Shown here in pieces: positions 1,934-32,061 of a stretch of 38,412 nt of DNA. The position numbers were made by a program, and so were the translations under genes. The stretch is from a virus (lineage: Duplodnaviria > Caudoviricetes), in IMG/VR virus record IMGVR_UViG_3300012940_000015, positions 1 to 38,412 of that record; one strand, 5' to 3'. Below the pieces are notes generated by a model. It worked only from the letters and a program-made list of their open reading frames with translations. It was not told the DNA's origin and ran no database searches. The number at the start of each line of letters is the position of its first letter. Positions within the stretch are counted from its first letter, which is position 1.

Positions 1934-2224
1934 ATGCACGAGGAGGCCGAGATGGCGTTGCTAGAGAACCTTGAGTTCGAACTGGCTGGCCGGTTCGAGC
2001 CGCTTGAGGCTGACCTCGGCAAGACGCACCTGAGCGTGCGCTACGAGCCTGAGGGCGCGATCGTCCGCATCGGCGCGTGCATCGCGGCGTACACGTGGGA
2101 CAACCGCGACAAGGTGATCGACGCGCTACTGGAGTTCGAGGACAGCCACGCAGACGAGTTCTCCGTGGAGTTCGACGTGGTGCCGCTGGAGGCGGTCACC
2201 GATCCGAACTACGCCGCCGTCTGA
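1934..2224 (+). CDS. Acidic 96-aa protein, putative antitoxin-like partner of the HEPN-like gene
   Basis: TACTGT -10 lies 7 nt before the ATG (leaderless); 3-nt gap to the next gene; strongly acidic. Confidence 0.6.
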   Translation: MHEEAEMALLENLEFELAGRFEPLEADLGKTHLSVRYEPEGAIVRIGACIAAYTWDNRDKVIDALLEFEDSHADEFSVEFDVVPLEAVTDPNYAAV

Positions 2225-2227
2225 GCG

Positions 2228-2662
2228 GTGGGGATCAGGGTCTGGCACGTCGCGCGTGCCGAGTATCACAAGGACGTCGCGGAGCATCTGCGCCGCGAGA
2301 CGGAGTTCGAGGACTGGGCGCTCGTGGCGCTGTACTACTCGGCGCTGCATCTGGTCGACTCGGTGCTTGCGGACGACCCGGATCTGCCCAAGGACGAGCG
2401 CAACCCGCGGAAGCATTCCGGCGTGAAGCCGGGCCAGCGTGGCCGGAACCAGCTGGTCGGGAAGTTGTTCCCGTTCGCTCCTCGCAAGGCGTACCGCAGC
2501 CTCGAGGATCTGTCTCGTCGCACGCGCTACGACTGCGAGGCGCTCAAGTCCAACGATGCCCGGAAGGCTTACGACCTCGCCTTGGACCAGTGGCGCGAGG
2601 TTGATCGGTACGCCCGGATGATGCACATCGCCCGGCCGCCGATCCCGTCAGAGGCACCCTGA
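2228..2662 (+). CDS. HEPN-like domain protein
   Basis: DW..VALYYSALH...S.L, then H..., RN, and Y..L..LS..TRY: helical pattern resembling the UPF0332-type HEPN family. Confidence 0.65.
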   Translation: MGIRVWHVARAEYHKDVAEHLRRETEFEDWALVALYYSALHLVDSVLADDPDLPKDERNPRKHSGVKPGQRGRNQLVGKLFPFAPRKAYRSLEDLSRRTRYDCEALKSNDARKAYDLALDQWREVDRYARMMHIARPPIPSEAP

Positions 2663-15176: not shown

Positions 15177-15752
15177 TCAGCTCGAGGAGCTGGACGACTC
15201 GACGCCGGAGTCGGCGTAGTCGTAGAAGAAGACGCCGCTCGCATCCTTGTAGAGCGTCAGGGTGATCGGGATGCCGACCACTGCGCCCGCGGTCATCTCC
15301 TGCGTGAAGTCCTCGGTCACGTCCTTGGCGTTGGGCGCGACGATGCGGCGCACGCTGTCGCCGTCCTTGAGCTCGAAGTCCCACGGCCCTGCCGGAGCGT
15401 CCTCGCCCTTGTAGGCGACGGTGATCTTGGTGCCGGCCACGGTGACGGCGCCGTCACCGAACTTCGCCTTGAGGACGTTGGGGTCGGCGGCCTGGATGAG
15501 CGTGAACGTCAGCGTCACCGAGGTCTCGGTCTTCAGGCGCTTGACCTCGTCGCCGTTCCAGTCGCGGATGACCTCGTATGCCTTGGTGATCGCGCGGGAG
15601 AGGCCGTCGCTCGACGCGTAGCCCTGGTTGATGAACGCGGGGTCGAGAGCCGTGGTCTCGTCGGTCGGCAGGGTCGTGCCTGCCGGTGCCCTGAAGATGT
15701 AGCCGCCAGGCTTACCGGTGCCGGCGACGATCAGGTTGCTGTCCTGTGCCAT
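15177..15752 (-). CDS. Major tail (tube) protein with C-terminal Ser6
   Basis: APAGTTLPTD...LD.AF...GY.SSDG motif of actinophage tail tubes; ends ESSSSSS. Confidence 0.9.
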   Translation of the reverse strand: MAQDSNLIVAGTGKPGGYIFRAPAGTTLPTDETTALDPAFINQGYASSDGLSRAITKAYEVIRDWNGDEVKRLKTETSVTLTFTLIQAADPNVLKAKFGDGAVTVAGTKITVAYKGEDAPAGPWDFELKDGDSVRRIVAPNAKDVTEDFTQEMTAGAVVGIPITLTLYKDASGVFFYDYADSGVESSSSSS

Positions 15753-15831
15753 GACAATCCTCCATGAAGTTGCGGAGCCTCATGGGTGGGTGGTGCACCC
15801 CTCGTCGCCGACGTGGGGAGTAGATGGCCCG

Positions 15832-16215
15832 TCAGAGAGCGACGGGGCGAAGGTTGAGCTCGACCGTGGCCTGCCAGCGCGGACAGGCGGCCTCGGGATC
15901 GGGGAACGACTGCGGACCACCGACGGCGATGACCTCACGGACGCGGTCACCGAACGTGGTGTCGTCGTGGATCGCCCACAGGTGAGCGAAGGCCAGGCGG
16001 CACATCTCGGAGGCCTCGACCTCGTCGGAGTGCCAGGTCTGGATCGTGAGCATCGGATGATCGTGGACCGGCGACCGGCGAGAACTGCCGATCTGCTCGA
16101 CGGTGATGGCGCCGTCGCGATCCCGAACGCGGGTCGAGACCTCGCGGGTCGGCATCTTCGCGGCCAGGTACTCGACAACCAGCGCCTCGGCGTCGACCGG
16201 AACCATGGTGGTCAT
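15832..16215 (-). CDS. Tail terminator
   Basis: Synteny plus DAEALVVEYL, VSTRV and PDP...RWQAT motifs. Confidence 0.75.
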   Translation of the reverse strand: MTTMVPVDAEALVVEYLAAKMPTREVSTRVRDRDGAITVEQIGSSRRSPVHDHPMLTIQTWHSDEVEASEMCRLAFAHLWAIHDDTTFGDRVREVIAVGGPQSFPDPEAACPRWQATVELNLRPVAL

Positions 16216-16454
16216 CCGCGCCCAGCGTTCAGGTTGGCCAGGATGGTGTTCCGCTTCGCGTTGCGGACCATGCCTCGCGGGGTCGTGGTGACCACGGCCG
16301 AGCGGGCACGGGTCTTGCCGTTGCCGCGGACAGCTTCGATCCCGGCGCCACAGTGAAGGGCGATCGCCTCGGCGCGGTCCTGGAGTTCGTCGGCCACCTT
16401 GGGCAGGCGGCGGATCTCCTCGAAGGCCGAGATGTTCCAGTCGATCTTGACCAT
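16212..16454 (-). CDS. Neck/tail-completion protein (80 aa)
   Basis: MVKIDWNISAFEEIRR...RARSAV...NAKRNTIL; overlaps both neighbours by start/stop coupling. Confidence 0.7.
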   Translation of the reverse strand: MVKIDWNISAFEEIRRLPKVADELQDRAEAIALHCGAGIEAVRGNGKTRARSAVVTTTPRGMVRNAKRNTILANLNAGRG

Positions 16455-16804
16455 CAGCCGGCCTCCTCGATCCTCAGCAGCGATACCCGGACGCCCGGCG
16501 TGAAGCCGAACGGTCCGTGGTTGAAGTCCTCGGGGTGGCCGACGACGGAGTAGAGCGTGCCGTCGACCGTCATCCGGTCCTTCGGCTTGGCGGCCGAGGC
16601 GGGCATGTAGACGTCGAGGTCGCGGACGACGGGGGTTCGGTTGGGCTCGAAGGGCTGGGCATCGGGCGAGGGTGGCGCCCAACCGTAGGCGTCCTCGGGA
16701 GTGCCGGGGTCGGCCCAGGTCTCCTTGGGGTTGCCGTGGGAGTTCTTGGTGCCCATGGAGCGCTGGTGAAGGGTGATCGACCAGGGAGTCGGGAAGGTGG
16801 GCAT
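16454..16804 (-). CDS. Head-to-tail stopper
   Basis: HGNP.ETW, GWAP, DRMTVDG..Y.VVG.P motifs; synteny. Confidence 0.75.
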   Translation of the reverse strand: MPTFPTPWSITLHQRSMGTKNSHGNPKETWADPGTPEDAYGWAPPSPDAQPFEPNRTPVVRDLDVYMPASAAKPKDRMTVDGTLYSVVGHPEDFNHGPFGFTPGVRVSLLRIEEAG

Positions 16805-16844
16805 TCGGCTGACACCACCCTTCAGGCAATGCGATGGTGGGTGG

Positions 16845-17201
16845 ATGCGCTCACTTGCTGTGATCCCTGTGCTTCTGCTTGCCTTCGCCGCTTGCGGCAA
16901 CGACGACGATGGCGACGGATCGAGCGGTGGGTCGACGCCCAAGTGCTCCGACATCTGGACGGAGGGCGCGACGATCCCGAAGGGCTACGAGGGCTGCGTG
17001 GACGGGAGCACCCTGAATCCCGTCGCGATCTACGACGACTGCGCCGGCGGCAAGGTCTTCATGCGCGACGACCGGATGTACGGCTTCGAGGGTGAGGGTG
17101 TGCACGTTGTTCCTGAGGGCACCGAGATCGGGTATGACCTGCCGGAGTACGACCAGCTCTGGCGGGAGTGCTACCCGACCGACGACGAGTCGTCGTCGTA
17201 G
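16845..17201 (+). CDS. Lipoprotein (antisense moron), candidate superinfection-exclusion protein
   Basis: Signal peptide with lipobox MRSLAVIPVLLLAFAA-C; acidic body with 4 further Cys. Confidence 0.75.
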   Translation: MRSLAVIPVLLLAFAACGNDDDGDGSSGGSTPKCSDIWTEGATIPKGYEGCVDGSTLNPVAIYDDCAGGKVFMRDDRMYGFEGEGVHVVPEGTEIGYDLPEYDQLWRECYPTDDESSS

Positions 17202-17566
17202 TTGTCGATCAGGTCCACCATGAAGGCACGCTGGACGCCGATTCGCAGCCGCTTCTTCTCGAACTTGGTCAGGTAGAGATCGCCCGACGGGTTCGCGAAC
17301 GAGACGCCCTGTGAGAACGGGCCGGCAGACTGCTGGGTCTGCGTGACTCCGTCGAAGTCGGCGGGGCCCTGCATGACCCGCTTGACCATCGCGCAGACGA
17401 TGGCCTTGAGGGTGGTCTCCGATGCCCAGTCCTCGATGTCGGGCTGGAGGTCGAGGATCAGCGTCGACGCGTCCTCCAGCAGGGTGTCGGCGCGCGTCTG
17501 CTCGGCCGGAGAGAGGGGGCGCCAGCGGGCTTCAAGATCCGCGTGGGTGGCGAACGGAGCAGCCAT
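17171..17566 (-). CDS. Head-to-tail adaptor (Gp19/Gp15/Gp42-like)
   Basis: FAT..DL..RWRPL...E..RA..LL.DAS, AGPFS and NP.GDLYLT motifs. Confidence 0.9.
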   Translation of the reverse strand: MAAPFATHADLEARWRPLSPAEQTRADTLLEDASTLILDLQPDIEDWASETTLKAIVCAMVKRVMQGPADFDGVTQTQQSAGPFSQGVSFANPSGDLYLTKFEKKRLRIGVQRAFMVDLIDNYDDDSSSVG

Positions 17567-17595
17567 GACGCACCCCTCTCTGGTTGGTCGGTCGA

Positions 17596-18573
17596 TCAGG
17601 AGCTGGACGAGCTGGACGAGTCGTCACCGGAGACGGTGAGCTTCCCGTGCTTCAGCTCGTTGCCGTACTTGAGCCCGATCTCGCCGTAGATCTGGACCTT
17701 GTCCGCAGAGCCGGTCTTGGCGAGCGGCTCGGCGAAGAAGTGACCCTTGCCCGGGATCTCCAGGAACGCGGGGGCCAGCTCCTCCAGCGACGCCACGACC
17801 AGTTGGTCGGCGGGCATGTACCGGTTGAGCATGATGTTCGCCCGGCCGAAGTCGGTCTCGAACGTCTGGAGGTTGACGCCGCCGACGTTGCGGGTCGACT
17901 CCTGGTAGCCCTTGTCCTTGATGAAGATCTTCGTGAGCTGGCGCTTCAGTGTGCCGTTCACAACGACCGTGCGGGTCTCGCCCTCCTGGATTCCGCCGTT
18001 CTCCCAGACCTCCTGGAAGAGGTCGAGCACGACGTCTTCTGTGAGGGCGCCGGCGGTCTCCACGTTGGAGGTGATCGCCTCGAGCAGGCCGCGGGTCTTC
18101 CGCGGGTTGGCGTTGGTCGCCGGCCGGGCGTAGGTGCCGGTGATGAACGTCTTCTCGACGTCCCGGGCGACCTGCTTGAATTGCTGCTCGAGCTGCCAGG
18201 CGAGCTCGTCGGCTGGGATAACCGTCGAGCCGACGGTGACCGCGGTGTTCTCGACACCACGCTGACGGTTCGCGCCCTGCTTGGTGTAGGAGATCTCCAC
18301 TGCTTCCTGGTGGATCTCCACGACGTTGCTGGCGTTGTAGCGGACGCGCTCCTCGCCAGAGGGGGCGTCGGCGCCCTCCAGGCGCTGCCGGTCGTCCTCG
18401 GCGTCGCGGAGGTCGTAGCCCTGCCACTCGAAAACGGTGGCGCCGACGGACTCGCCACCGGTGAGGCCGCCAATGGCGGACAGGAGCGGGGTGTCCTCGG
18501 GCGAGGCTGCGAACAGCTCGCCCACGTAGTTCGGCAGGTTGAAGGTGGTTCCCTGCCCGGTGATTCCGGCCAT
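17596..18573 (-). CDS. Major capsid protein with C-terminal Ser7
   Basis: TTFNLPNYVGELF..SP.DTP.LS.IGGL and LAKTGS....IYGEIGL.YG.E..HG motifs (DUF5309/SU10-like); ends DDSSSSSSS. Confidence 0.92.
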   Translation of the reverse strand: MAGITGQGTTFNLPNYVGELFAASPEDTPLLSAIGGLTGGESVGATVFEWQGYDLRDAEDDRQRLEGADAPSGEERVRYNASNVVEIHQEAVEISYTKQGANRQRGVENTAVTVGSTVIPADELAWQLEQQFKQVARDVEKTFITGTYARPATNANPRKTRGLLEAITSNVETAGALTEDVVLDLFQEVWENGGIQEGETRTVVVNGTLKRQLTKIFIKDKGYQESTRNVGGVNLQTFETDFGRANIMLNRYMPADQLVVASLEELAPAFLEIPGKGHFFAEPLAKTGSADKVQIYGEIGLKYGNELKHGKLTVSGDDSSSSSSS

Positions 18574-18598
18574 GATCGGCCCCTTTCAGGATGAAGGT

Positions 18599-19201
18599 TC
18601 AGGTGGTGGTGGTTGCAGTCGCGCCCGCGAGCTTCATCGCCTTTAGTTGGGCGACGAGGCCCTTGTTGCCCGCGCCCTCCGCTGCCGAGATCTGCTCGTC
18701 GATGGAGATGTTGGGCGCGGCGGCCGGGGTCTTGCCGATGGTCGGCACGACGGCCGGCGTGGGCATCCCGTCGGACTGCTGTCCGATGAGCGGCTTGAGG
18801 GTCGCGGCGTGCGCCTCGATCTCCTCCTTGGTGGACCCAGCCAGTGCCACCGCGGGGACCCCGGTCACTTCGGCGACCTCGGCCTTCCACGTGGCGATCT
18901 GCTCGCGGGTCTCGTACTCCTTGACCTTGGCCTGCGCTGCGGCGAGCGCGTCGGCCTGCTTCTGTGCCTCGGTCTTGGCCGACTCCTCGATCTCGGCGAG
19001 GCGCTTGGCAGCCTCGGCGTTCTCCTTGGAGCGCGTCTCCCACTTGCGGGACTCGGCGATCGTCTCCTCGTACTTCGCCTTCCAGTCGGGCTCCTGTGCA
19101 GGTGCCGCAGGCGTGGCGGGCGGAGACGGTGCGGGCGGCGAGGGGTTGGGCTGGCCAGGGATGGTCGCCGGACCGGTCGGCTCAGTTGGAGTGGTGCTCA
19201 T
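18599..19201 (-). CDS. Scaffolding protein
   Basis: Pro-rich N-terminus, DWKA...SRKWE.R.KEN coiled coil; directly before the capsid gene. Confidence 0.88.
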   Translation of the reverse strand: MSTTPTEPTGPATIPGQPNPSPPAPSPPATPAAPAQEPDWKAKYEETIAESRKWETRSKENAEAAKRLAEIEESAKTEAQKQADALAAAQAKVKEYETREQIATWKAEVAEVTGVPAVALAGSTKEEIEAHAATLKPLIGQQSDGMPTPAVVPTIGKTPAAAPNISIDEQISAAEGAGNKGLVAQLKAMKLAGATATTTT

Positions 19202-19209
19202 CGGATTCC

Positions 19210-19281
19210 TCCCGTGCGGGATCGCCACGACGCCGTGCGGCTGGTCATGGATGGTGGGTGGTTCTTCCGCCGTGCGGCGGG
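19210..19281 (-). repeat. Three CC-GCAC-GG mini-hairpins in the scaffold leader
   Basis: CCGTGCGG on the plus strand at 19212, 19233 and 19270, each with an extendable stem. Confidence 0.7.
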
Positions 19282-19284
19282 AAG

Positions 19285-19944
19285 TCAGAGGTGATCGGCG
19301 ATCCACTTGCGAGCGCGGGCATTGTCGGCCTCGCGGGTCTCGTCGGATCGGCGACGCTGGCTGGCGCGGTACTCCTCGACGTCGACGAGGGTCGCCTTGC
19401 CTGCCCACTTGGGGGTCGCGCCACAGTGGCAGGAGTCGTGGCTGGCGAACTTCACGGTGGACTCGGTGTAGACGAAGCCGCGTCCGGCGAGCATCACGCA
19501 GAACTGGCACCCATCGGCTCGGGCGACTCTCTGCCAGCCTTCGCCACGAGGATCGGCAAATGATGAGCCCATGATCGTCTCGCGTGACCAGTCGGAGATC
19601 CGGCGAGAGAGGCCGCCAATGATCAGCGCCTCCATCGACGCGAGGTCGGTGGCGGTCGTGCTAGCCCATCCGGTCAGCGACTCAGTGTCCTGGCTTGGCA
19701 GGTCCGCAGGGATGGCCCTGAAGCGCCCTTGGACAGCCTGCTCGTCACGGAGGTCGTCGTACCACTCCGCGGCCACCAGGGAGGCCGCTTCGCCGTACTG
19801 ACGGGTCAGGGTGGGGAGGACGTCGTTGAGCGCCTCGCGGGCTTCGGCCGCCGTCTCCAGGCGACGAAAGATCGTGGCGACGTCTCGCTGCGCCAGCCCA
19901 GTCAGGCGGGCGATGTCGCGCCGCAGGTCTGCCGGCGTCGGCAT
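19285..19944 (-). CDS. MuF-like / capsid maturation protein
   Basis: W.RV....C.FC.MLA.RG..Y and H..C.C motifs, between portal and scaffold. Confidence 0.8.
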   Translation of the reverse strand: MPTPADLRRDIARLTGLAQRDVATIFRRLETAAEAREALNDVLPTLTRQYGEAASLVAAEWYDDLRDEQAVQGRFRAIPADLPSQDTESLTGWASTTATDLASMEALIIGGLSRRISDWSRETIMGSSFADPRGEGWQRVARADGCQFCVMLAGRGFVYTESTVKFASHDSCHCGATPKWAGKATLVDVEEYRASQRRRSDETREADNARARKWIADHL

Positions 19945-19947
19945 TGG

Positions 19948-21588
19948 CTACCGCTCCTCGAGCGACCGCGCCTGCGACTCAGGAAGGCGCAGGGCGACCG
20001 GCGTGGCGCCGGTGAACTCCAGGCCGCTCAGGCCGACCCGTCGTGCCGCCTCCTCGGGGTCGACGCCGGCGCGGATCAGGACACCGAGTGCGTCTGCCTT
20101 GGCCTTGATCGCCGCGGCGTCCTCAGTCACGGACGCCCCCCCCAGTTCCTCAGGAGAAGTGGCGCCAGTGGCGCGGTCGAGGATGGAGTTCAGGGAGTCC
20201 GAGCCGCGACGACGACGAAGCTCGCTCTCTGCTCGGTCGATCTGATCGGGCTCCATGCCGACAAGCTCCATGCCGACCGTCGTGTCGGCGAGGGATGGGA
20301 TGGCCGAGACCTGCTTCGTCCCAGCGTCGGCGATCGACACCAGTGACGGGCGGTCACCACGGCGCCACTTGAACGACAGGTCGAGGATGCCCTCGGGCGG
20401 TGTAGTCATGTTGTCGCGGATCATGATCGCGTTCTCGAACGTTCGGAGCAGCGCGTCGCTGTAGATGACGTGCTGCTTCTCGACGTCCACGATGATGTCC
20501 TGGCGGGCCTCCTGCTTGGCGCCCTGCGACTCGGGGTTGTCGGTCGAGATGCCCAGCGACGACATCGGGACGCCGGTGTGACCGGAGAACTTCGATGCGA
20601 GGTCACGACCGATCGCGATGTGCGGCTCTGGCGACTCTGATCGGATGATTTCCAGCTCGGGAGTGTCGCCGTCCTCGTCCTTCGAGAGCATGTTCATCCG
20701 GCCGAGGAAGAACGACCACAGCGGCACCATCTTGCCGCTGGCGTCCTTGAAGGCTTCCTCGTCGGCCCCCAGGAGGAGGAGCTTCATGGAGGTGAACAGC
20801 TCGGAGTGGACCTCGAGCCGGGCGCCGGCTCGGACGGCCCGATTCGTCAGCGACATGACGGTGCGGTCGATCCGGGACCGCCCGAAGGGACGATCGGTGG
20901 TCGGCCTGAACGGCAGGATCTCCATCGGCGTGCGGCCGAGTGCGTGCGGGATGACGGCCGAGACATACCAGCCTTGCGATCCCTTCGCGCACACCACGTG
21001 CTCAGCCGGAGTCATGACAGTGATCTCGACCGGCAGGCCCATCTTGTCGACCTCGGAGATCAGCATCCCGCCCCGGAGCGCACGACGCCGGCGGTCCCAG
21101 ATGCCCGTCGACCAGAGCGCAGAGTGGAACATGATCAGAGCCGGGGCCTCGCCCTCCGCGACATCGCCCGGAGTCGTCGAGACGAAGGCGCACGACTGGG
21201 CCAGGGAGGACGCGACGGCCTGCGGGAACTCGATCGCAAAGCGGTTGTCGTACAAGACTCGCTTCAGGTCGAACGGGTCACGGCTGTCGTCAGGGCTCAG
21301 GATGCGCTCAAAGACAATGCGGTTCGCGACCTCATAGACGGCCTTCTCGGGCCACCCGACCACGACGTCGAGCCGGTCAACGAGCGATGGTGGGAGCGAG
21401 ACGCCCAGGTCGTCAAGGGTGTTCTTCGCGTCGAGGTAGATCATCCGCTCGAGGTTCCGGGGAAGCTTCCACGCCCACTGGACGACGAGCTCGTTCAGGA
21501 GATCTTGGGTCTGCTCATTGAGGCCGAGGACCTGCGGCGGCGCGAAGGCTCGGATCGGATGCACTTGCCCGAGGGGGGTCAGCGTCAC
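19948..21588 (-). CDS. Portal protein
   Basis: 546 aa after the terminase; VVGWP.KAV and RPFGRSRI motifs. Confidence 0.92.
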   Translation of the reverse strand: MTLTPLGQVHPIRAFAPPQVLGLNEQTQDLLNELVVQWAWKLPRNLERMIYLDAKNTLDDLGVSLPPSLVDRLDVVVGWPEKAVYEVANRIVFERILSPDDSRDPFDLKRVLYDNRFAIEFPQAVASSLAQSCAFVSTTPGDVAEGEAPALIMFHSALWSTGIWDRRRRALRGGMLISEVDKMGLPVEITVMTPAEHVVCAKGSQGWYVSAVIPHALGRTPMEILPFRPTTDRPFGRSRIDRTVMSLTNRAVRAGARLEVHSELFTSMKLLLLGADEEAFKDASGKMVPLWSFFLGRMNMLSKDEDGDTPELEIIRSESPEPHIAIGRDLASKFSGHTGVPMSSLGISTDNPESQGAKQEARQDIIVDVEKQHVIYSDALLRTFENAIMIRDNMTTPPEGILDLSFKWRRGDRPSLVSIADAGTKQVSAIPSLADTTVGMELVGMEPDQIDRAESELRRRRGSDSLNSILDRATGATSPEELGGASVTEDAAAIKAKADALGVLIRAGVDPEEAARRVGLSGLEFTGATPVALRLPESQARSLEER

Positions 21589-23123
21589 GTCATCCCCCCT
21601 ACGGTCATCTTTCGGCCTGGCTTGCGCTTGCTGGTCTTGGCGCCCCAGTGGGCGAGTGCTGCGGAGGCGATCGGTACCTCGCCGCCAGGATCAGATGGGC
21701 AATGCCAGTTCCATGCGCCCTCAGTGCCGCGAAGCTTCTTCGTGGTCACTGCGACCGAGTCGTCGAGCACCTTCTGGCCCTCGGGTTTCTCCGGGTCGGA
21801 CAGATGGGTCGCAGTCCTGCCGATGACCGCCTCGAGGAGCATTGCGTTGGCTGTGGCGACCTCGGGCCACGTCGGGGTCACGATCGCCCGCTTCGACACG
21901 CCCAGGTCGATCAGCTTGTTGACGAAGGCTCCCGCGTGAGACTTGCCGTCGACCACAATCGCGGCGTAGTTGGCGGCCCGTTCTGCGACCCACTCGGCCA
22001 GCGAGGCGGTGCCGGCGGACATGCTGCCGGTGTGCGCTCCGACGAGCTCGACATGGATGCCGCCCTTGTGCTTGAGCGCCCCGGAGACGGCGACGCGAGA
22101 CCCGTCGGGAGAGAACTTGATCCCGAGCGACTTGATGCCATCAGTGGGCGGGGCAGGGACGGCGGTGGCGCTCCACTCGTCGGGCATGATCACGCGGTCA
22201 ACCAGCTGGGCGTCGTCTCGCCAGATGCCGAGCCGGTCCTGCGCGAAACGGTCGGGCGAGTAGGTCTCAAACTCGCCTTGCACCACTTCGTGGTTGATCC
22301 TGGTGTTCCACGCCGGGTTGGCGGCCCAGCACAGATACTCCACGGCCGACGACCAGGTGCGAGAGGCGAGATCGGACTTCGCGGCGAGGTACTCCGGCGA
22401 TGTCAGCTCGGCAGACCATTCCACCCAAGCGGCGGCCGACGACTTCCCATCGAGTGCCGCACGGCGGACCATCTCGAAGGTGTAGCAGTCGTCCTCATCC
22501 TGCGGCGGCGTGCCGAGGAGCCAGACCTGCGGGTTCTTCATCGCCGACATCGTCGAGTTGATCGACGTCCACGCACGAGAGCCGAGGATCTGCGCCTCGT
22601 CGAGCAGCAGGCAGTCGGAGGAGAAGCCCTTGCCGGCCGCGCCCGAGCGAGCCTTGAACTGGATCAGCGCGCCGTTGGAGAACTTCACCGACTCACGGTT
22701 CAGCGCGTTCATCACGCTCTTGACTCGTGACCGCAACGCGCCGTTGGCGTCGTCCTCGACGATCTCCATCAGCTTCGCGAATGACTCCCGTGCAGTGTCC
22801 TGCTGGTGCGCACTGACGACGATCTTCTTCTCGCCGAACAGCAACGCGCCGGCGAGAGCACGGGCAACGAGGAGTTGGCTCTTACCGTTCTGGCGAGGGA
22901 CCGTGATCCCGACCCGCTTGGCGGCCCAGGTGCGATCGGACCGTTCACCCATGGCAGCCTCGAGGATCAGTTCTTGCCAAGCATCGAGCGCGATGCCGAA
23001 CGACGCCGAGATGTCGGCGACGTCCTGCCAGGAGTTAGCCCTTGCCCCCTGCGGCTTGACCAAGACGCGAGGTGGCGCCTCCCCGAGCAGCGCGACGGGC
23101 TGCGATCTCGTCAATCGGGTCAC
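21585..23123 (-). CDS. terL: Terminase large subunit
   Basis: Walker A VPRQNGKS, Walker B LLLDEAQ, coupling motif GTPP, ANPA. Confidence 0.95.
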   Translation of the reverse strand: MTRLTRSQPVALLGEAPPRVLVKPQGARANSWQDVADISASFGIALDAWQELILEAAMGERSDRTWAAKRVGITVPRQNGKSQLLVARALAGALLFGEKKIVVSAHQQDTARESFAKLMEIVEDDANGALRSRVKSVMNALNRESVKFSNGALIQFKARSGAAGKGFSSDCLLLDEAQILGSRAWTSINSTMSAMKNPQVWLLGTPPQDEDDCYTFEMVRRAALDGKSSAAAWVEWSAELTSPEYLAAKSDLASRTWSSAVEYLCWAANPAWNTRINHEVVQGEFETYSPDRFAQDRLGIWRDDAQLVDRVIMPDEWSATAVPAPPTDGIKSLGIKFSPDGSRVAVSGALKHKGGIHVELVGAHTGSMSAGTASLAEWVAERAANYAAIVVDGKSHAGAFVNKLIDLGVSKRAIVTPTWPEVATANAMLLEAVIGRTATHLSDPEKPEGQKVLDDSVAVTTKKLRGTEGAWNWHCPSDPGGEVPIASAALAHWGAKTSKRKPGRKMTVGGMT

Positions 23124-23283
23124 CAGCCTTCGCGGTCGGAGTCAGCTCCTCGATCTGCTTCGCAATGGACTCCGCGCGCGCGATCAAGGGGGCACACTTC
23201 TCGGGGTCCGAAGCGGTGATCGAGGCGAGTGCGATCTCGTACAGGGACCGCAGTTCCTCGAGGCGGTTGAAGGCGTCGGACAT
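23035..23283 (-). CDS. terS: Terminase small subunit
   Basis: Short helical protein ending D.IDEIAARRAAR, directly before terL. Confidence 0.75.
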   Translation of the reverse strand: MSDAFNRLEELRSLYEIALASITASDPEKCAPLIARAESIAKQIEELTPTAKAGDPIDEIAARRAARGGATSRLGQAAGGKG

Positions 23284-23373
23284 GGCGGCCCCCAACCTGA
23301 CGAGCTCTGCGTGTGAAAAGGCCGTATGCCCGGAGGCTGCCGCGACCCGGGCGGGGGAGGGGGTGGTGCCCCG

Positions 23374-23694
23374 TCACCAGATGGATGAAGCCTCGACCGG
23401 CTTCGGTGTGGCCATGGTCTCGCCTGCGAGTCGTGCTCGAGCCTCGGCGAGCGTCATCGTCGACTTCCATCGGTTGCATCGACGGTGCATGAGGTGACAG
23501 TTGGAGCGTTGGTACTGCGATCCACCACGCGAACGCGGTACATCCTCGTCGACCACGGCAGCCATCGGGTCGAGGTGATGCAGCGTCTGATCCACGTAGC
23601 CATCGCACAGGGCGCAGTGGGTCTCTTCAGCCTTGACCCGGGCGACCACCTGTCGACGACGGTGGCCGTTGGCGTTGACCCGGGCAGCCATCAC
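23374..23694 (-). CDS. HNH endonuclease (packaging-associated)
   Basis: CALC...VDEDVPRSRGG...N....HRRCN..K. Confidence 0.85.
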   Translation of the reverse strand: MMAARVNANGHRRRQVVARVKAEETHCALCDGYVDQTLHHLDPMAAVVDEDVPRSRGGSQYQRSNCHLMHRRCNRWKSTMTLAEARARLAGETMATPKPVEASSIW

Positions 23695-24446
23695 GCAACC
23701 TGTGCGATGGTCTCAGGCGAGGAGGTGGAGGTCTTCTCGTACCGCCCCGGGGTCTTGAACTCCCCCCGGACGTACTCACCTAGGGGGCCGTTCCATGAGC
23801 CGGGGGAGCCTGACAAGTAGGGGAGGGGGAGGTTCAACTTCGCCCCCAAGGTCTCGGTCTTCACCTTGGCGTTGCCTCGAGCCTCACCCTCGGGACCTGC
23901 GCCGGCGACGGGGTACAGCTCACCCACGGCAAACGGCTGACCAGTGGGGTACGCAGCCAGCGCATCCCGCAGCCGCTTGGTGTCGAAGACGAGCGGCGTG
24001 TGGCACTCGTAGATCCAGGGATCGATGCCGGTGGTCTCGGCGACCCAGGTGGCGGTGGCGATCACGGCCCGATGCCACGCGCCGAGTGCCCGCTCCTTCT
24101 GTTCGGCCGCTGCCCAACGTGAGGCGGGGTGACGATTGCGGCAGACCACGATCTCGTCGTGCGGCTCGATGGCGAACATGTCGTCGTTGAGCACGACGAG
24201 ACGGTCGGCAGCGCCCGGCAGGTTGACGTAGGCGGTCAGGCTGTGGCGCTGGTTCTCGAACTTGTTGGGGTGCGGCTCGAGCGGGAGCCGTGCACCGGCG
24301 AACCAGTCAGGCGGAACGCCCACGGCCCAGACGTCTCGCCACTCCATGCGGAGGTTCTGCTCGAAGGAGCGGAGCGAGTACCGCATCTCGTCGCGGCCGG
24401 GCGAGTCGGGCTGACCCCCGACGACGTAGACGAGGTCGGTGGTCAT
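23691..24446 (-). CDS. Stealth-family sugar-1-phosphate transferase
   Basis: CR1-like DLVYV, CR2-like DEMRYSLRS...PDW...LNDDMF, CR3-like HTP, CR4-like F..P.RYE. Confidence 0.75.
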   Translation of the reverse strand: MTTDLVYVVGGQPDSPGRDEMRYSLRSFEQNLRMEWRDVWAVGVPPDWFAGARLPLEPHPNKFENQRHSLTAYVNLPGAADRLVVLNDDMFAIEPHDEIVVCRNRHPASRWAAAEQKERALGAWHRAVIATATWVAETTGIDPWIYECHTPLVFDTKRLRDALAAYPTGQPFAVGELYPVAGAGPEGEARGNAKVKTETLGAKLNLPLPYLSGSPGSWNGPLGEYVRGEFKTPGRYEKTSTSSPETIAQVA

Positions 24447-24448
24447 GG

Positions 24449-25099
24449 CTACCTGGAACGGACGATGCAGAATCCCCGCTTGGCGGGGTTCTTGGCCCAC
24501 AGGCGGACCTCACGACCCTCGAAGTCCCAGCGCTCACGCAGGGTCTTGTTGCGGGCCAGTGCGAGCCGTGCGCCTTCCTCGACCTCGAAGCGCGGGTCGC
24601 CGACGTCGTGCAGCACGATGACGGCGTCGTCGGCCATGTGTGGCAGCCACGCCTTCAGATCGTCGCGCACATCCTCCTTGCGGTGGAGCGCGTCGTGGAA
24701 CAGCAAGCCGACCGGCAGGCCGTCGTACTGCTCAGCGCCCTCGGTCGCGGTGGCCTGGTGGGCGGTGACGTACTCACCGGCGCCGGTCAGCTCCATGTGG
24801 GCATCGAAGGCGGCGCGAGTCTCGGAGCGGACATACTCGACGATGCTGGGCGCGTGCTGCTCGTAACCGGCCGGGATCTCCCCGGCCTCCCACGGGTCGA
24901 AGGCATGAACCTGAACGCCGGCGCCACGGGACGAGCCGAGCGCGAGGTGACCCGTCGAGCGGCCCTTGAAGGAGCCAAGCTCAACGATCGCCTGACCGGC
25001 TGGCACCTTGGACGCCAGGTCGATCAACACGTCGCGGCAGGGGTTCTCGATCAGCCCCACGGCGATCTTCTGGTCGAGGATCGCAGCCTCGTTCAGCAT
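24449..25099 (-). CDS. Class I SAM-dependent methyltransferase (Methyltransf_24-like)
   Basis: IVELGSFKGRST, LLFHDALH and IVLHD motifs; GAGGAGG RBS. Confidence 0.85.
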   Translation of the reverse strand: MLNEAAILDQKIAVGLIENPCRDVLIDLASKVPAGQAIVELGSFKGRSTGHLALGSSRGAGVQVHAFDPWEAGEIPAGYEQHAPSIVEYVRSETRAAFDAHMELTGAGEYVTAHQATATEGAEQYDGLPVGLLFHDALHRKEDVRDDLKAWLPHMADDAVIVLHDVGDPRFEVEEGARLALARNKTLRERWDFEGREVRLWAKNPAKRGFCIVRSR

Positions 25100-30762: not shown

Positions 30763-30935
30763 TGCCCTCGCCTCCCTTCCCGATTGCAGTCCTTGCATTG
30801 CCGGCGCCCGACGTTGTTGACGCGCCGGATCCCGCACGACGCGCACCAGCCCTCGGCGACGCGCTGATCGGCGTCGTAGGCGGCTCGGGCTGCGATCTGG
30901 CGGGCGTTCCAGGCGGCGAGGGAGTCGGGGGTCAT
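30759..30935 (-). CDS. 58-aa Zn-finger protein (not in the ORF track)
   Basis: MTPDSLAAWNARQ...CASC...CKDC; coupled at both ends. Confidence 0.55.
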   Translation of the reverse strand: MTPDSLAAWNARQIAARAAYDADQRVAEGWCASCGIRRVNNVGRRQCKDCNREGRRGH

Positions 30936-31582
30936 GAGACCGCTCCAAACAGGGTGTCCTGCGCGAGGCGCTTGGCCGCGATCTCGCAGTAGCGCTCGTC
31001 AAGTTCGACGCCGATTGCCCGGTGCCCCAACTGCTTAGCGGCAGCGAGAGTCGGTCCGCTGCCTGCCGTTGGGTCAGCAATGACCCACTGGTCGGGGCAC
31101 TTGTCGACCAGGTCTTGCATGAGGCCAATCGGCTTCTCGTGCGGGTGTTGACGGCCGTTGTAGCCAAGCGACTGCACTGGAGCGTGGCTCAGGATGTTCG
31201 AGCCGCGGTGGCCCACGAAGCCGTAGCCCAAGACGTAGATCTCCTGATCCGACGGCTTCCATGGCACCGACAGATTCCCCATGCCCAGCGCGCCTTTGGT
31301 GTCCCAGACGAGGCGCGTGTGCGTGGCAGCCGGGCGGGGGATGCGCCACGTCCCGAAAATCAGGGCTGGGCGGTCTCCCCATGCGGCGAGGATGTCGTCA
31401 CGGACGGCTGTGTCCTCGTCACCCTCGATGCTGTCGGCGAGCGTCTGTCGCCGAGACCCGCTCTTGTAGGCGATGCCATAAGGCACGTCGCAGATCAGCA
31501 CGTCGGCCTCAAGCCACGCGGTGATCTCGCGGCAATCACCGTGATACAGGGTCACAAGGTCGTCGGAGTAGTAGGGGGTCAC
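30932..31582 (-). CDS. Orphan N6-A/N4-C DNA methyltransferase (beta class)
   Basis: GDC, DVPY (DPPY variant), HPHEKP, DPTAGSG and GVEL motifs. Confidence 0.88.
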   Translation of the reverse strand: MTPYYSDDLVTLYHGDCREITAWLEADVLICDVPYGIAYKSGSRRQTLADSIEGDEDTAVRDDILAAWGDRPALIFGTWRIPRPAATHTRLVWDTKGALGMGNLSVPWKPSDQEIYVLGYGFVGHRGSNILSHAPVQSLGYNGRQHPHEKPIGLMQDLVDKCPDQWVIADPTAGSGPTLAAAKQLGHRAIGVELDERYCEIAAKRLAQDTLFGAVS

Positions 31583-32061
31583 GCCGCACCTCCCCCGTAC
31601 TCGTAGACGTCGGACAGCTCGATCCACATCGCGGCGGGCAGTCCCTTCACGGGTGGGTGGATGCGCTCGGTGGACGCGGGTACGTGCACCCAGGAGTCGT
31701 CGGGCAGCACGCCCTCGTCGACGAGCGCGTCGGTCACTGCCTTCTTGGTGCCGGCAAGGTTGTCGGCGTCTCGGCGGCGGTTGTCAGGTACGCGCCAGTG
31801 CAGGGTGATGTTGGCGGCGACGATGGGGCGGACCTTGGCGGCTCGGATGGCCCAGCGTGCTTCGGTGCGGGTGCTGCCGACTGCGCGCGCCTTGGTTGCC
31901 CAGTGCCCGCGGTCGTTGAGGCTGATCGGTGGCCGCGTCCAGGGCAGCGGGATCAGGATCGCGTTGGACGGCTTGTCGCACTTGTGGCGGCGGATGGTGC
32001 CGGTCTTGGTGGGGGTGTAGCGGCGGCCGCAGTCGGGGCAGGGGATGGCGCTCAGGCTCAC
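31579..32061 (-). CDS. RusA-like Holliday junction resolvase with N-terminal Zn-binding segment
   Basis: SLN, RRRDADNL...K...DAL...GVLPDD motifs; N-terminal CPDC...H.C. Confidence 0.8.
   Translation of the reverse strand: MSLSAIPCPDCGRRYTPTKTGTIRRHKCDKPSNAILIPLPWTRPPISLNDRGHWATKARAVGSTRTEARWAIRAAKVRPIVAANITLHWRVPDNRRRDADNLAGTKKAVTDALVDEGVLPDDSWVHVPASTERIHPPVKGLPAAMWIELSDVYEYGGGAA

Follow-up and report, generated by a model that had tools for sequence, protein, structure and literature searches.

Phages of the Che8/Corndog type encode two or three conventional glycosyltransferases that target the capsid and tail tube, and the glycan is reportedly attached at a C-terminal serine. Virion glycosylation is known from a few mycobacteriophages, among them Che8, Corndog and Myrna (via PMC12363180, PMC11600133, PMC11256854 and PMC12582341), and it lowers antibody neutralization according to work cited in PMC12363180 and PMC11600133. 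In cluster O phages, an O-methyltransferase adjoins the transferases (PMC11600133). A different linkage, a sugar phosphodiester on serine, is described for Dictyostelium, where GlcNAc-P-Ser phosphoglycosylation concerns eukaryotic secretory proteins and no Stealth enzyme is named for it in the accessible part of the source (PMC6994554). We found no phage example of this kind of modification. Here we examine a candidate virion phosphoglycosylation cassette in the viral record IMGVR_UViG_3300012940_000015 (the window, analyzed over its whole length of 38,412 nucleotides). It consists of a methyltransferase and a Stealth-like transferase, encoded by a phage whose capsid and tail tube proteins end in serine runs.

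The window phage shares with the Che8/Corndog system a phage-encoded transferase and, presumably, the capsid and tail tube as targets, and a methyltransferase adjoins the transferase as in cluster O phages. Unlike the Che8/Corndog type, its only recognizable transferase has a Stealth fold, and the probable acceptor is a run of 6-7 serines (up to 15 in relatives). The serine at the C-terminus of both capsid and tail tube is itself a Che8/Corndog-type feature. The first-pass annotation, made from the letters of the window alone, had seen no conventional glycosyltransferase, and a Pfam scan of 75 window open reading frames (ORFs) in this complete genome likewise found no glycosyltransferase family. 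In the mycobacteriophage Fionnbharth, which carries the same enzyme pair, none was found in the annotation or in a Pfam scan of 15 larger ORFs. Direct action on the serines is the simplest reading.

In the mechanism we propose, the minimal Stealth-fold enzyme would take sugar-1-phosphate from a host nucleotide sugar and transfer it directly onto the C-terminal serine runs of the capsid and tail tube subunits. The adjacent methyltransferase would then O-methylate the attached sugar, leaving the virion with a densely packed, anionic surface. Since both enzymes are free of hydrophobic segments, they would work in the cytoplasm while particles assemble. We consider it very probable that the virion is the target of these enzymes. 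The specific chemistry, in which sugar-1-phosphate is placed directly on the serine tails and the sugar is subsequently methylated, we favor by a narrow measure. We infer that the tags are the substrate and face outward, that the linkage is sugar-phosphate-serine and that the methyl group sits on the sugar.

The assignment of the 251-residue protein to the Stealth fold rests on profile and predicted structure. On its own, the protein matches Pfam Stealth_CR2 with an E value of 0.003 and 18.2 bits, below the 39.4 cut-off, which was passed by only one of 30 scanned homologues (P0048). It has 31 close homologues. A profile search with an E limit of 0.001 gathered 5,102 representatives at the 50% identity level, and these include canonical Stealth proteins. 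A 136-row profile searched against the PDB gave five significant matches, all of them Stealth proteins (E 3e-13 to 9e-10), and no other significant match. The predicted model (predicted local distance difference test score, pLDDT, 94.6) had CpsY and GNPTAB as its top Foldseek matches. Using VIA-align, the eight best matches were all Stealth entries (Z 15.2-17.4), whereas the next fold scored Z 11.1. The best structural match (Z 17.4, root-mean-square deviation [rmsd] 3.0, 219 aligned residues) spans GNPTAB 73-1188. HHalign comparison with 29 bacterial Stealth domains gave 99.2-99.7% with CR1-CR4 colinear. The Stealth domain suspected in the first-pass annotation is thus confirmed by profile and predicted structure.

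Several active-site features are also shared. N87-D88-D89 and H149 align with GNPTAB N406-D407-D408 and H956, H149 falling on the His of PAHMP, and PMC9388126 counts D407, D408, H956 and N1151 of GNPTAB as catalytic. Within the 136-row alignment, D89 and H149 are invariant (136/136) and D88 is kept in 134 rows. The phage protein therefore has the catalytic fold, CR1-CR4 order, NDD motif and general-base His of Stealth phosphoglycosyl transferases such as GNPTAB and mycobacterial CpsY (PF11380). It differs from these two in being a soluble minimal form below the Pfam cut-off, in lacking the Arg986-type loop and in its inferred acceptor, a protein serine. CR4 aligns, although the likely counterpart of GNPTAB N1151 (S214) varies among S, N, T and D, and there is no clear conservation of the residues through which GNPTAB contacts GlcNAc. 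One phage-type enzyme was detected among 401 genomes of the family of G001, where 31 genomes held weaker, mostly canonical Stealth matches, and one among 401 genomes from a genus search.

The serine tails themselves were confirmed as first described, with the capsid ending SGDDSSSSSSS and the tail tube DSGVESSSSSS. Among 52 hand-listed ORFs, in which serine makes up 6.0% of residues, only these two proteins contain a serine run longer than three. The chance of 6 or 7 terminal serines is ~5e-8 and 3e-9 per protein, respectively. Slippage of the DNA was considered as an origin of the runs and rejected, because the serine codons are mixed (TCG/TCC/AGC); this was so in the 22 tails printed, except for the three TCG codons of the adaptor. 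The possibility that the DNA coding for the DD-SSS ends specifies an RNA hairpin or a terminator was likewise rejected, with z scores of +0.97 (capsid), -1.63 (tube) and -1.62 (adaptor), none significant, and no terminator-like site was found at these ends. The adaptor end DDDSSSVG, which had been listed as a third tail, is present but overlaps, via a near-palindrome, the 3' end of an antisense lipoprotein-like ORF ending DDESSS; alone, it is therefore weaker evidence. The adaptors of relatives L005, L007, L010 and L039 have 4-11 serines at their ends. In three homologous capsids, an Ig-like Big_2 domain occupies this C-terminal end, which by analogy suggests that the capsid tag site faces outward.

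Poly-serine on capsid, tube and connectors tracks the enzyme clade over unrelated capsid families, and the tails are absent from close sisters without the enzyme, so that the genomic co-occurrence on which the initial proposal depended was borne out. A motif pattern search for enzyme loci returned 114 loci, 80 with full flanks. All six viral loci found via the enzyme (five distinct) have poly-serine on capsid, adaptor or tube. When 80 loci were instead fetched by capsid similarity alone, poly-serine occurred only in L005 and L039, and only there was the enzyme in the locus. Whole-record searches found the enzyme absent from 48 further records, with both positive controls detected, and from 10 more, mostly partial. 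After clustering of capsids at 90%, SSSS was present in the last 10 residues of 12/28 enzyme-bearing clusters versus 0/50 others (P = 7e-7), and serine in the last three residues of 27/28 versus 24/50 (P = 6e-6); both P values are nominal because the clusters are related. Other genes of the same loci (n = 315) had an SSSS end in 5 cases and serine in the last three residues in 75. Not entered in the cluster counts were enzyme loci without a capsid or tube in reach, three truncated capsids and 11 complete candidate capsids that PHROG did not confirm as major head proteins; of these 11, 10 have serine in the last three residues.

In a quick tree, the enzymes from all poly-serine phages it includes group together as a single clade with SH-aLRT 100; it contains 13 rows, and tags are visible for 11 of them. 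Tag length follows the enzyme clade. The 14 capsids linked to this clade fall into eight groups at 50% identity and five PHROG families. Among SU10 capsids, the three tagged ones lie on three separate branches, and their nearest kin are untagged. In the G737 prophage, the cassette (79%/73%) recurs at the same site with a different head-tail module, and the capsid, head closure protein, tube and one further ORF there end in 8-15 serines. The capsid of L299, 81% identical to that of G737, ends VTPDVTP, and the corresponding site lacks the cassette. In cassette-free relatives, the tail tubes end DGVTTA (L299) and DGRFSA (L300), and the single match from a family tail-tube search, L344, ends DGQKTA. 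Within 37 K-type loci, serine lies near both the capsid and tube ends in 3/3 with the enzyme and 0/34 without it. In a converse search for poly-serine ends that lack the enzyme, a DNA pattern for a seven-serine end plus stop matched three viral contigs, all off-frame in a low-GC phage group.

The same pair occurs in cultured phages, where it has gone unnoticed: the Stealth-like gene is a "hypothetical protein" in all 53 isolated-phage records matched. Fionnbharth genes 6 and 95 (L001 1273-1959 and L335 28469-29044) are an unannotated Stealth-like and methyltransferase pair at opposite genome ends, which become neighbors on circularization. Gaia genes 170-171 (L003 14237-15588) are the same pair. 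Capsids of Fionnbharth and Gaia end DAGSGS and PSSGS, and their tubes VGSV and VVGS. Fionnbharth carries the label K4 and has reportedly been used therapeutically. Gene 10 of Gaia (L004 8073-8660), annotated as a tail assembly chaperone, resembles the window's tail tube.

The methyltransferase named in the first-pass annotation proved to be one, matching Methyltransf_24 with an E value of 1.9e-20 (74.1 bits versus a cut-off of 26.3) and having a class I fold (predicted model, pLDDT 96.4). MeT1 (PDB 6G80/6G7D), a sugar 1-O-methyltransferase (PMC9883506), is its best fold match (Z 21.5, rmsd 2.5, 193 aligned residues), yet at 16% identity, and also its best sequence match (E 8e-4). The sugar O-methyltransferases SpnH, NovP and MycF are likewise near the top of the fold matches. 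Catechol O-methyltransferases score only 2-3 Z below MeT1, so the fold does not fix the substrate. Five loci (L005-L007, L095 and L096) encode the methyltransferase and the Stealth domain as one fused protein. Its 38 matches in isolated phages comprise 34 mycobacteriophage records, which are the same 34 that carry the Stealth-like gene, three records in which it lies beside annotated transferases and one weak cyanophage match. Of five partial contigs from the enzyme clade, only one had a recognizable copy; the methyltransferase thus seems optional and may be a finishing step. Members of the same family lie beside an annotated glycosyl/glycerophosphate transferase in Thermobifida phage P1312 (L336 12872-13867) and fused within a glycosyltransferase cluster in phiAsp2 (L337 18434-21613); no Stealth-like gene was found in the stretch fetched of either.

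A methyl cap could also have a different role, namely to terminate sugar-phosphate chains that the Stealth-like enzyme polymerizes on the serines; in another variant, the group transferred would be alditol-phosphate or a nucleoside monophosphate. Bacterial Stealth proteins build capsular polysaccharides (PMC9388126), MeT1 blocks the sugar end (PMC9883506), and Fionnbharth-type phages have only 1-2 terminal serines yet keep the methyltransferase. A cytidylyltransferase lies upstream in L158, and one homologue has a weak NTP_transf_3 match (E 0.004). Runs of 6-15 serines, however, are in keeping with many separate additions, chain building would require a single small active site to take both serine and sugar, and the window scans revealed no gene for making a donor. 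We judge such a polymer or other phospho-adduct to be quite unlikely.

Several observations weigh against direct transfer of sugar-1-phosphate to virion serines. The FRS segment of bacterial Stealth proteins, which presumably holds the Arg986 equivalent, is a gap in the phage family. This residue is strictly conserved in GNPTAB, where even the Arg986Lys exchange eliminated activity (PMC9388126). Because nothing in the phage family aligns with this essential Arg, transfer of sugar-1-phosphate is unproven. K62 (119 K and 11 R of 136) and K194 (135/136) are near-invariant and may, judging from the alignment, be candidates to substitute for it. By fold and most of its active site, the modeled enzyme appears to work like a Stealth enzyme, but we do not file it as a canonical member because one defining residue, in the Arg loop, fails. 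The phosphodiester coat of the first-pass annotation is supported by tag and enzyme co-occurrence and by the two folds, and is qualified by the gapped Arg and the seemingly optional methyltransferase.

The Arg gap also suits an enzyme that, without this loop, acts like a GT-A enzyme, attacks the anomeric carbon and leaves plain O-glycosides on the same serines, the linkage class of the described mycobacteriophage glycans. The GT6, GT8 and UGGT folds come next after Stealth (Z 9.7-11). Moreover, a GT2 was found in 7/30 records searched, all seven Stealth-negative with serine-ended capsids; for this reason, it looks as if GT2 and Stealth-like enzymes stand in for each other in modifying one type of tag. 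We nevertheless regard plain glycosylation as unlikely, given that Stealth entries score more than 4 Z units above all glycosyltransferases, that the general-base His never varies and two lysines hardly do, and that the domain is fused to a real GT2 in L123 and L140, which suggests a different reaction. The GT2-Stealth fusions of L123, L140, L151, L153 and related low-GC phages adjoin the terminase, and their candidate capsids end ESE, DSE or SES.

A further difficulty for direct transfer is that described Stealth enzymes use sugar acceptors rather than protein serines (PMC7729866). This would be accommodated if a host enzyme primed the serine with sugar or phosphate and the Stealth enzyme added sugar-phosphate to the primer by its usual chemistry. 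Glycosyltransferases able to prime are carried by many relatives (TurkishDelight, Yvonnetastic, Rasputia and L039). Actinobacterial protein O-mannosylation, however, acts on exported proteins and is not known to modify cytoplasmic capsids. Together with the absence of glycosyltransferases from the window and Fionnbharth scans and the tracking of tag length with enzyme clade, this makes host priming a very improbable explanation. Rasputia (L342 4953-9311) has its Stealth-like gene with three glycosyltransferases, an acetyltransferase and a methyltransferase, and the Stealth-like gene of L158 (7283-8158, minus strand) sits in a larger cassette with the upstream cytidylyltransferase and a GT7-like gene.

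Some distant members of the family lie away from structural genes (BrutonGaster, Zooman and L139), as would be expected if the enzymes acted on phage DNA or a host cell-wall polymer and the serine tails were a separate trait. PHROG 2675 labels the methyltransferase "DNA methyltransferase," and one distant homologue has a weak SAP-domain match. Such a target leaves the repeated gain of tags on unrelated capsids unexplained, and in relatives, the Stealth-like gene is directly behind the capsid or adaptor gene. The methyltransferase fold resembles those of sugar and small-molecule O-methyltransferases, a separate N6/N4 DNA methyltransferase is encoded at 30932-31627, and the enzymes lack hydrophobic segments. 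We therefore consider a DNA or cell-wall target highly improbable. A large group of low-GC phages (L105, L110, L111, L118-L122 and others) also encodes the enzyme at a distance from structural genes, in some cases close to genes resembling those of sugar metabolism.

The remaining counterpoints to serine-tag modification concern sampling and exceptions. In 43 of 88 enzyme loci, no capsid or tube was within reach for scoring, and many close loci may come from similar environments. The enzyme-bearing capsid of L124 ends TPQA. The complete K-type records L224, L240 and L241 end GS, and neither Stealth nor GT2 (PF00535, the only alternative tested) was found in them; a terminal serine alone is therefore not diagnostic. 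L085, L087 and L088 have serine-rich ends and no visible enzyme on short contigs, with L085 and L088 rated 24-28% complete. In L088, the capsid, adaptor and tube all end DES, and in L085 and L087, the capsid and tube are serine-rich, which makes these records candidates for a missing cassette.

The preferred reading, direct phosphoglycosylation of the tags, is set in a complete genome with direct terminal repeats and 67% GC that encodes a tyrosine integrase and a repressor-like gene; the phage is a temperate actinophage. Its host is likely a Nocardioides-like actinobacterium because the nearest cassette relatives are a prophage of a Nocardioidaceae genome (L218) and proteins labeled Nocardioides. 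The cassette opens a minus-strand series that continues through HNH, small terminase, large terminase, portal, capsid, adaptor, connectors, tail tube and tape measure (coordinates in Table 1). Two nucleotides separate the methyltransferase stop from the Stealth-like gene start, and the Stealth-like stop overlaps the HNH start. The description of the pair as the first enzymes of a late operon thus agrees with the gene order and tight junctions, although no promoter was found.

Table 1. Features of the candidate cassette and of its presumed targets in the window
Feature	Coordinates	Strand	Basis or remark
SAM-dependent (S-adenosylmethionine) O-methyltransferase, 216 residues, predicted soluble	24449..25099	-	Methyltransf_24
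Minimal Stealth-family catalytic domain, 251 residues, predicted soluble	23691..24446	-	PHROG 7999; fold and profile
HNH packaging endonuclease, directly behind cassette	23374..23694	-	PHROG 338, E 1.7e-19
Large terminase	21585..23123	-	Pfam TerL_ATPase
Major capsid protein, SU10 family, end SGDDSSSSSSS	17596..18573	-	Pfam SU10_MCP, PHROG 1328
Candidate capsid acceptor tag: DD, 7 Ser, stop	17596..17625	-	Mixed codons
Head-tail adaptor, end DDDSSSVG (weaker tag)	17171..17566	-	PHROG 137
Tail tube protein, end DSGVESSSSSS	15177..15752	-	Phage_TTP_17, PHROG 117
Candidate tail tube acceptor tag: E, 6 Ser, stop	15177..15200	-	Mixed codons

Three further observations concern other ORFs of the window. 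The antisense lipoprotein-like ORF (16773-17201, plus strand, likely start 16845) lies between the adaptor and stopper genes and encodes an acidic product with a hydrophobic N-terminus ending in Cys; it had no match in Pfam or PHROG and is possibly a superinfection-exclusion moron. The ORF in the scaffold position (18599-19510, minus strand) ends in a threonine run, ATATTTT, and its relatives in L300 and L088 end ALASK and LLSAS. Two small ORFs adjoining the integrase (1934-2662, plus strand) look like an accessory pair, possibly toxin-antitoxin, with no Pfam match.

No report on phage Stealth proteins, poly-serine capsid tails or Fionnbharth glycosylation was found in the literature, although the text or supplements of Freeman et al. 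2023 on mycobacteriophage virion glycosylation (PMID 37329881) might list the phages or enzymes concerned. What is likely new here is the Stealth-only writer and its cultured test subjects, together with a sugar-phosphate coat chemistry for which we found no phage report in print. The window phage and Fionnbharth are the cleanest cases for the function of phage Stealth proteins because no glycosyltransferase accompanies the enzyme, and the proposal is testable now since cultured Fionnbharth-type mycobacteriophages carry the same pair. A soil phage might as plausibly gain protection against proteases, aggregation or decoy binding as antibody shielding.

The finding points to a second, chemically different route to a virion coat, through a single small enzyme missed by standard annotation. 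Whether the whole phage mini-Stealth family (5,102 representatives) consists of serine phosphoglycosyl transferases that recognize a transferable C-terminal serine tag and, with one enzyme, give the virion a sugar-phosphate "capsule" capped by methyl groups is, in our estimation, evenly balanced. If so, these would be the first Stealth enzymes with a protein acceptor and the first case of phosphoglycosylation in phages, already present in Fionnbharth and Gaia. PHROG 7999 would gain a function, Stealth chemistry would extend to protein acceptors, and a one-enzyme, short-tag system for phosphoglycosylating proteins would be at hand. Some cultured phages, including ones reportedly studied for therapy, would then carry an unrecognized surface coat.

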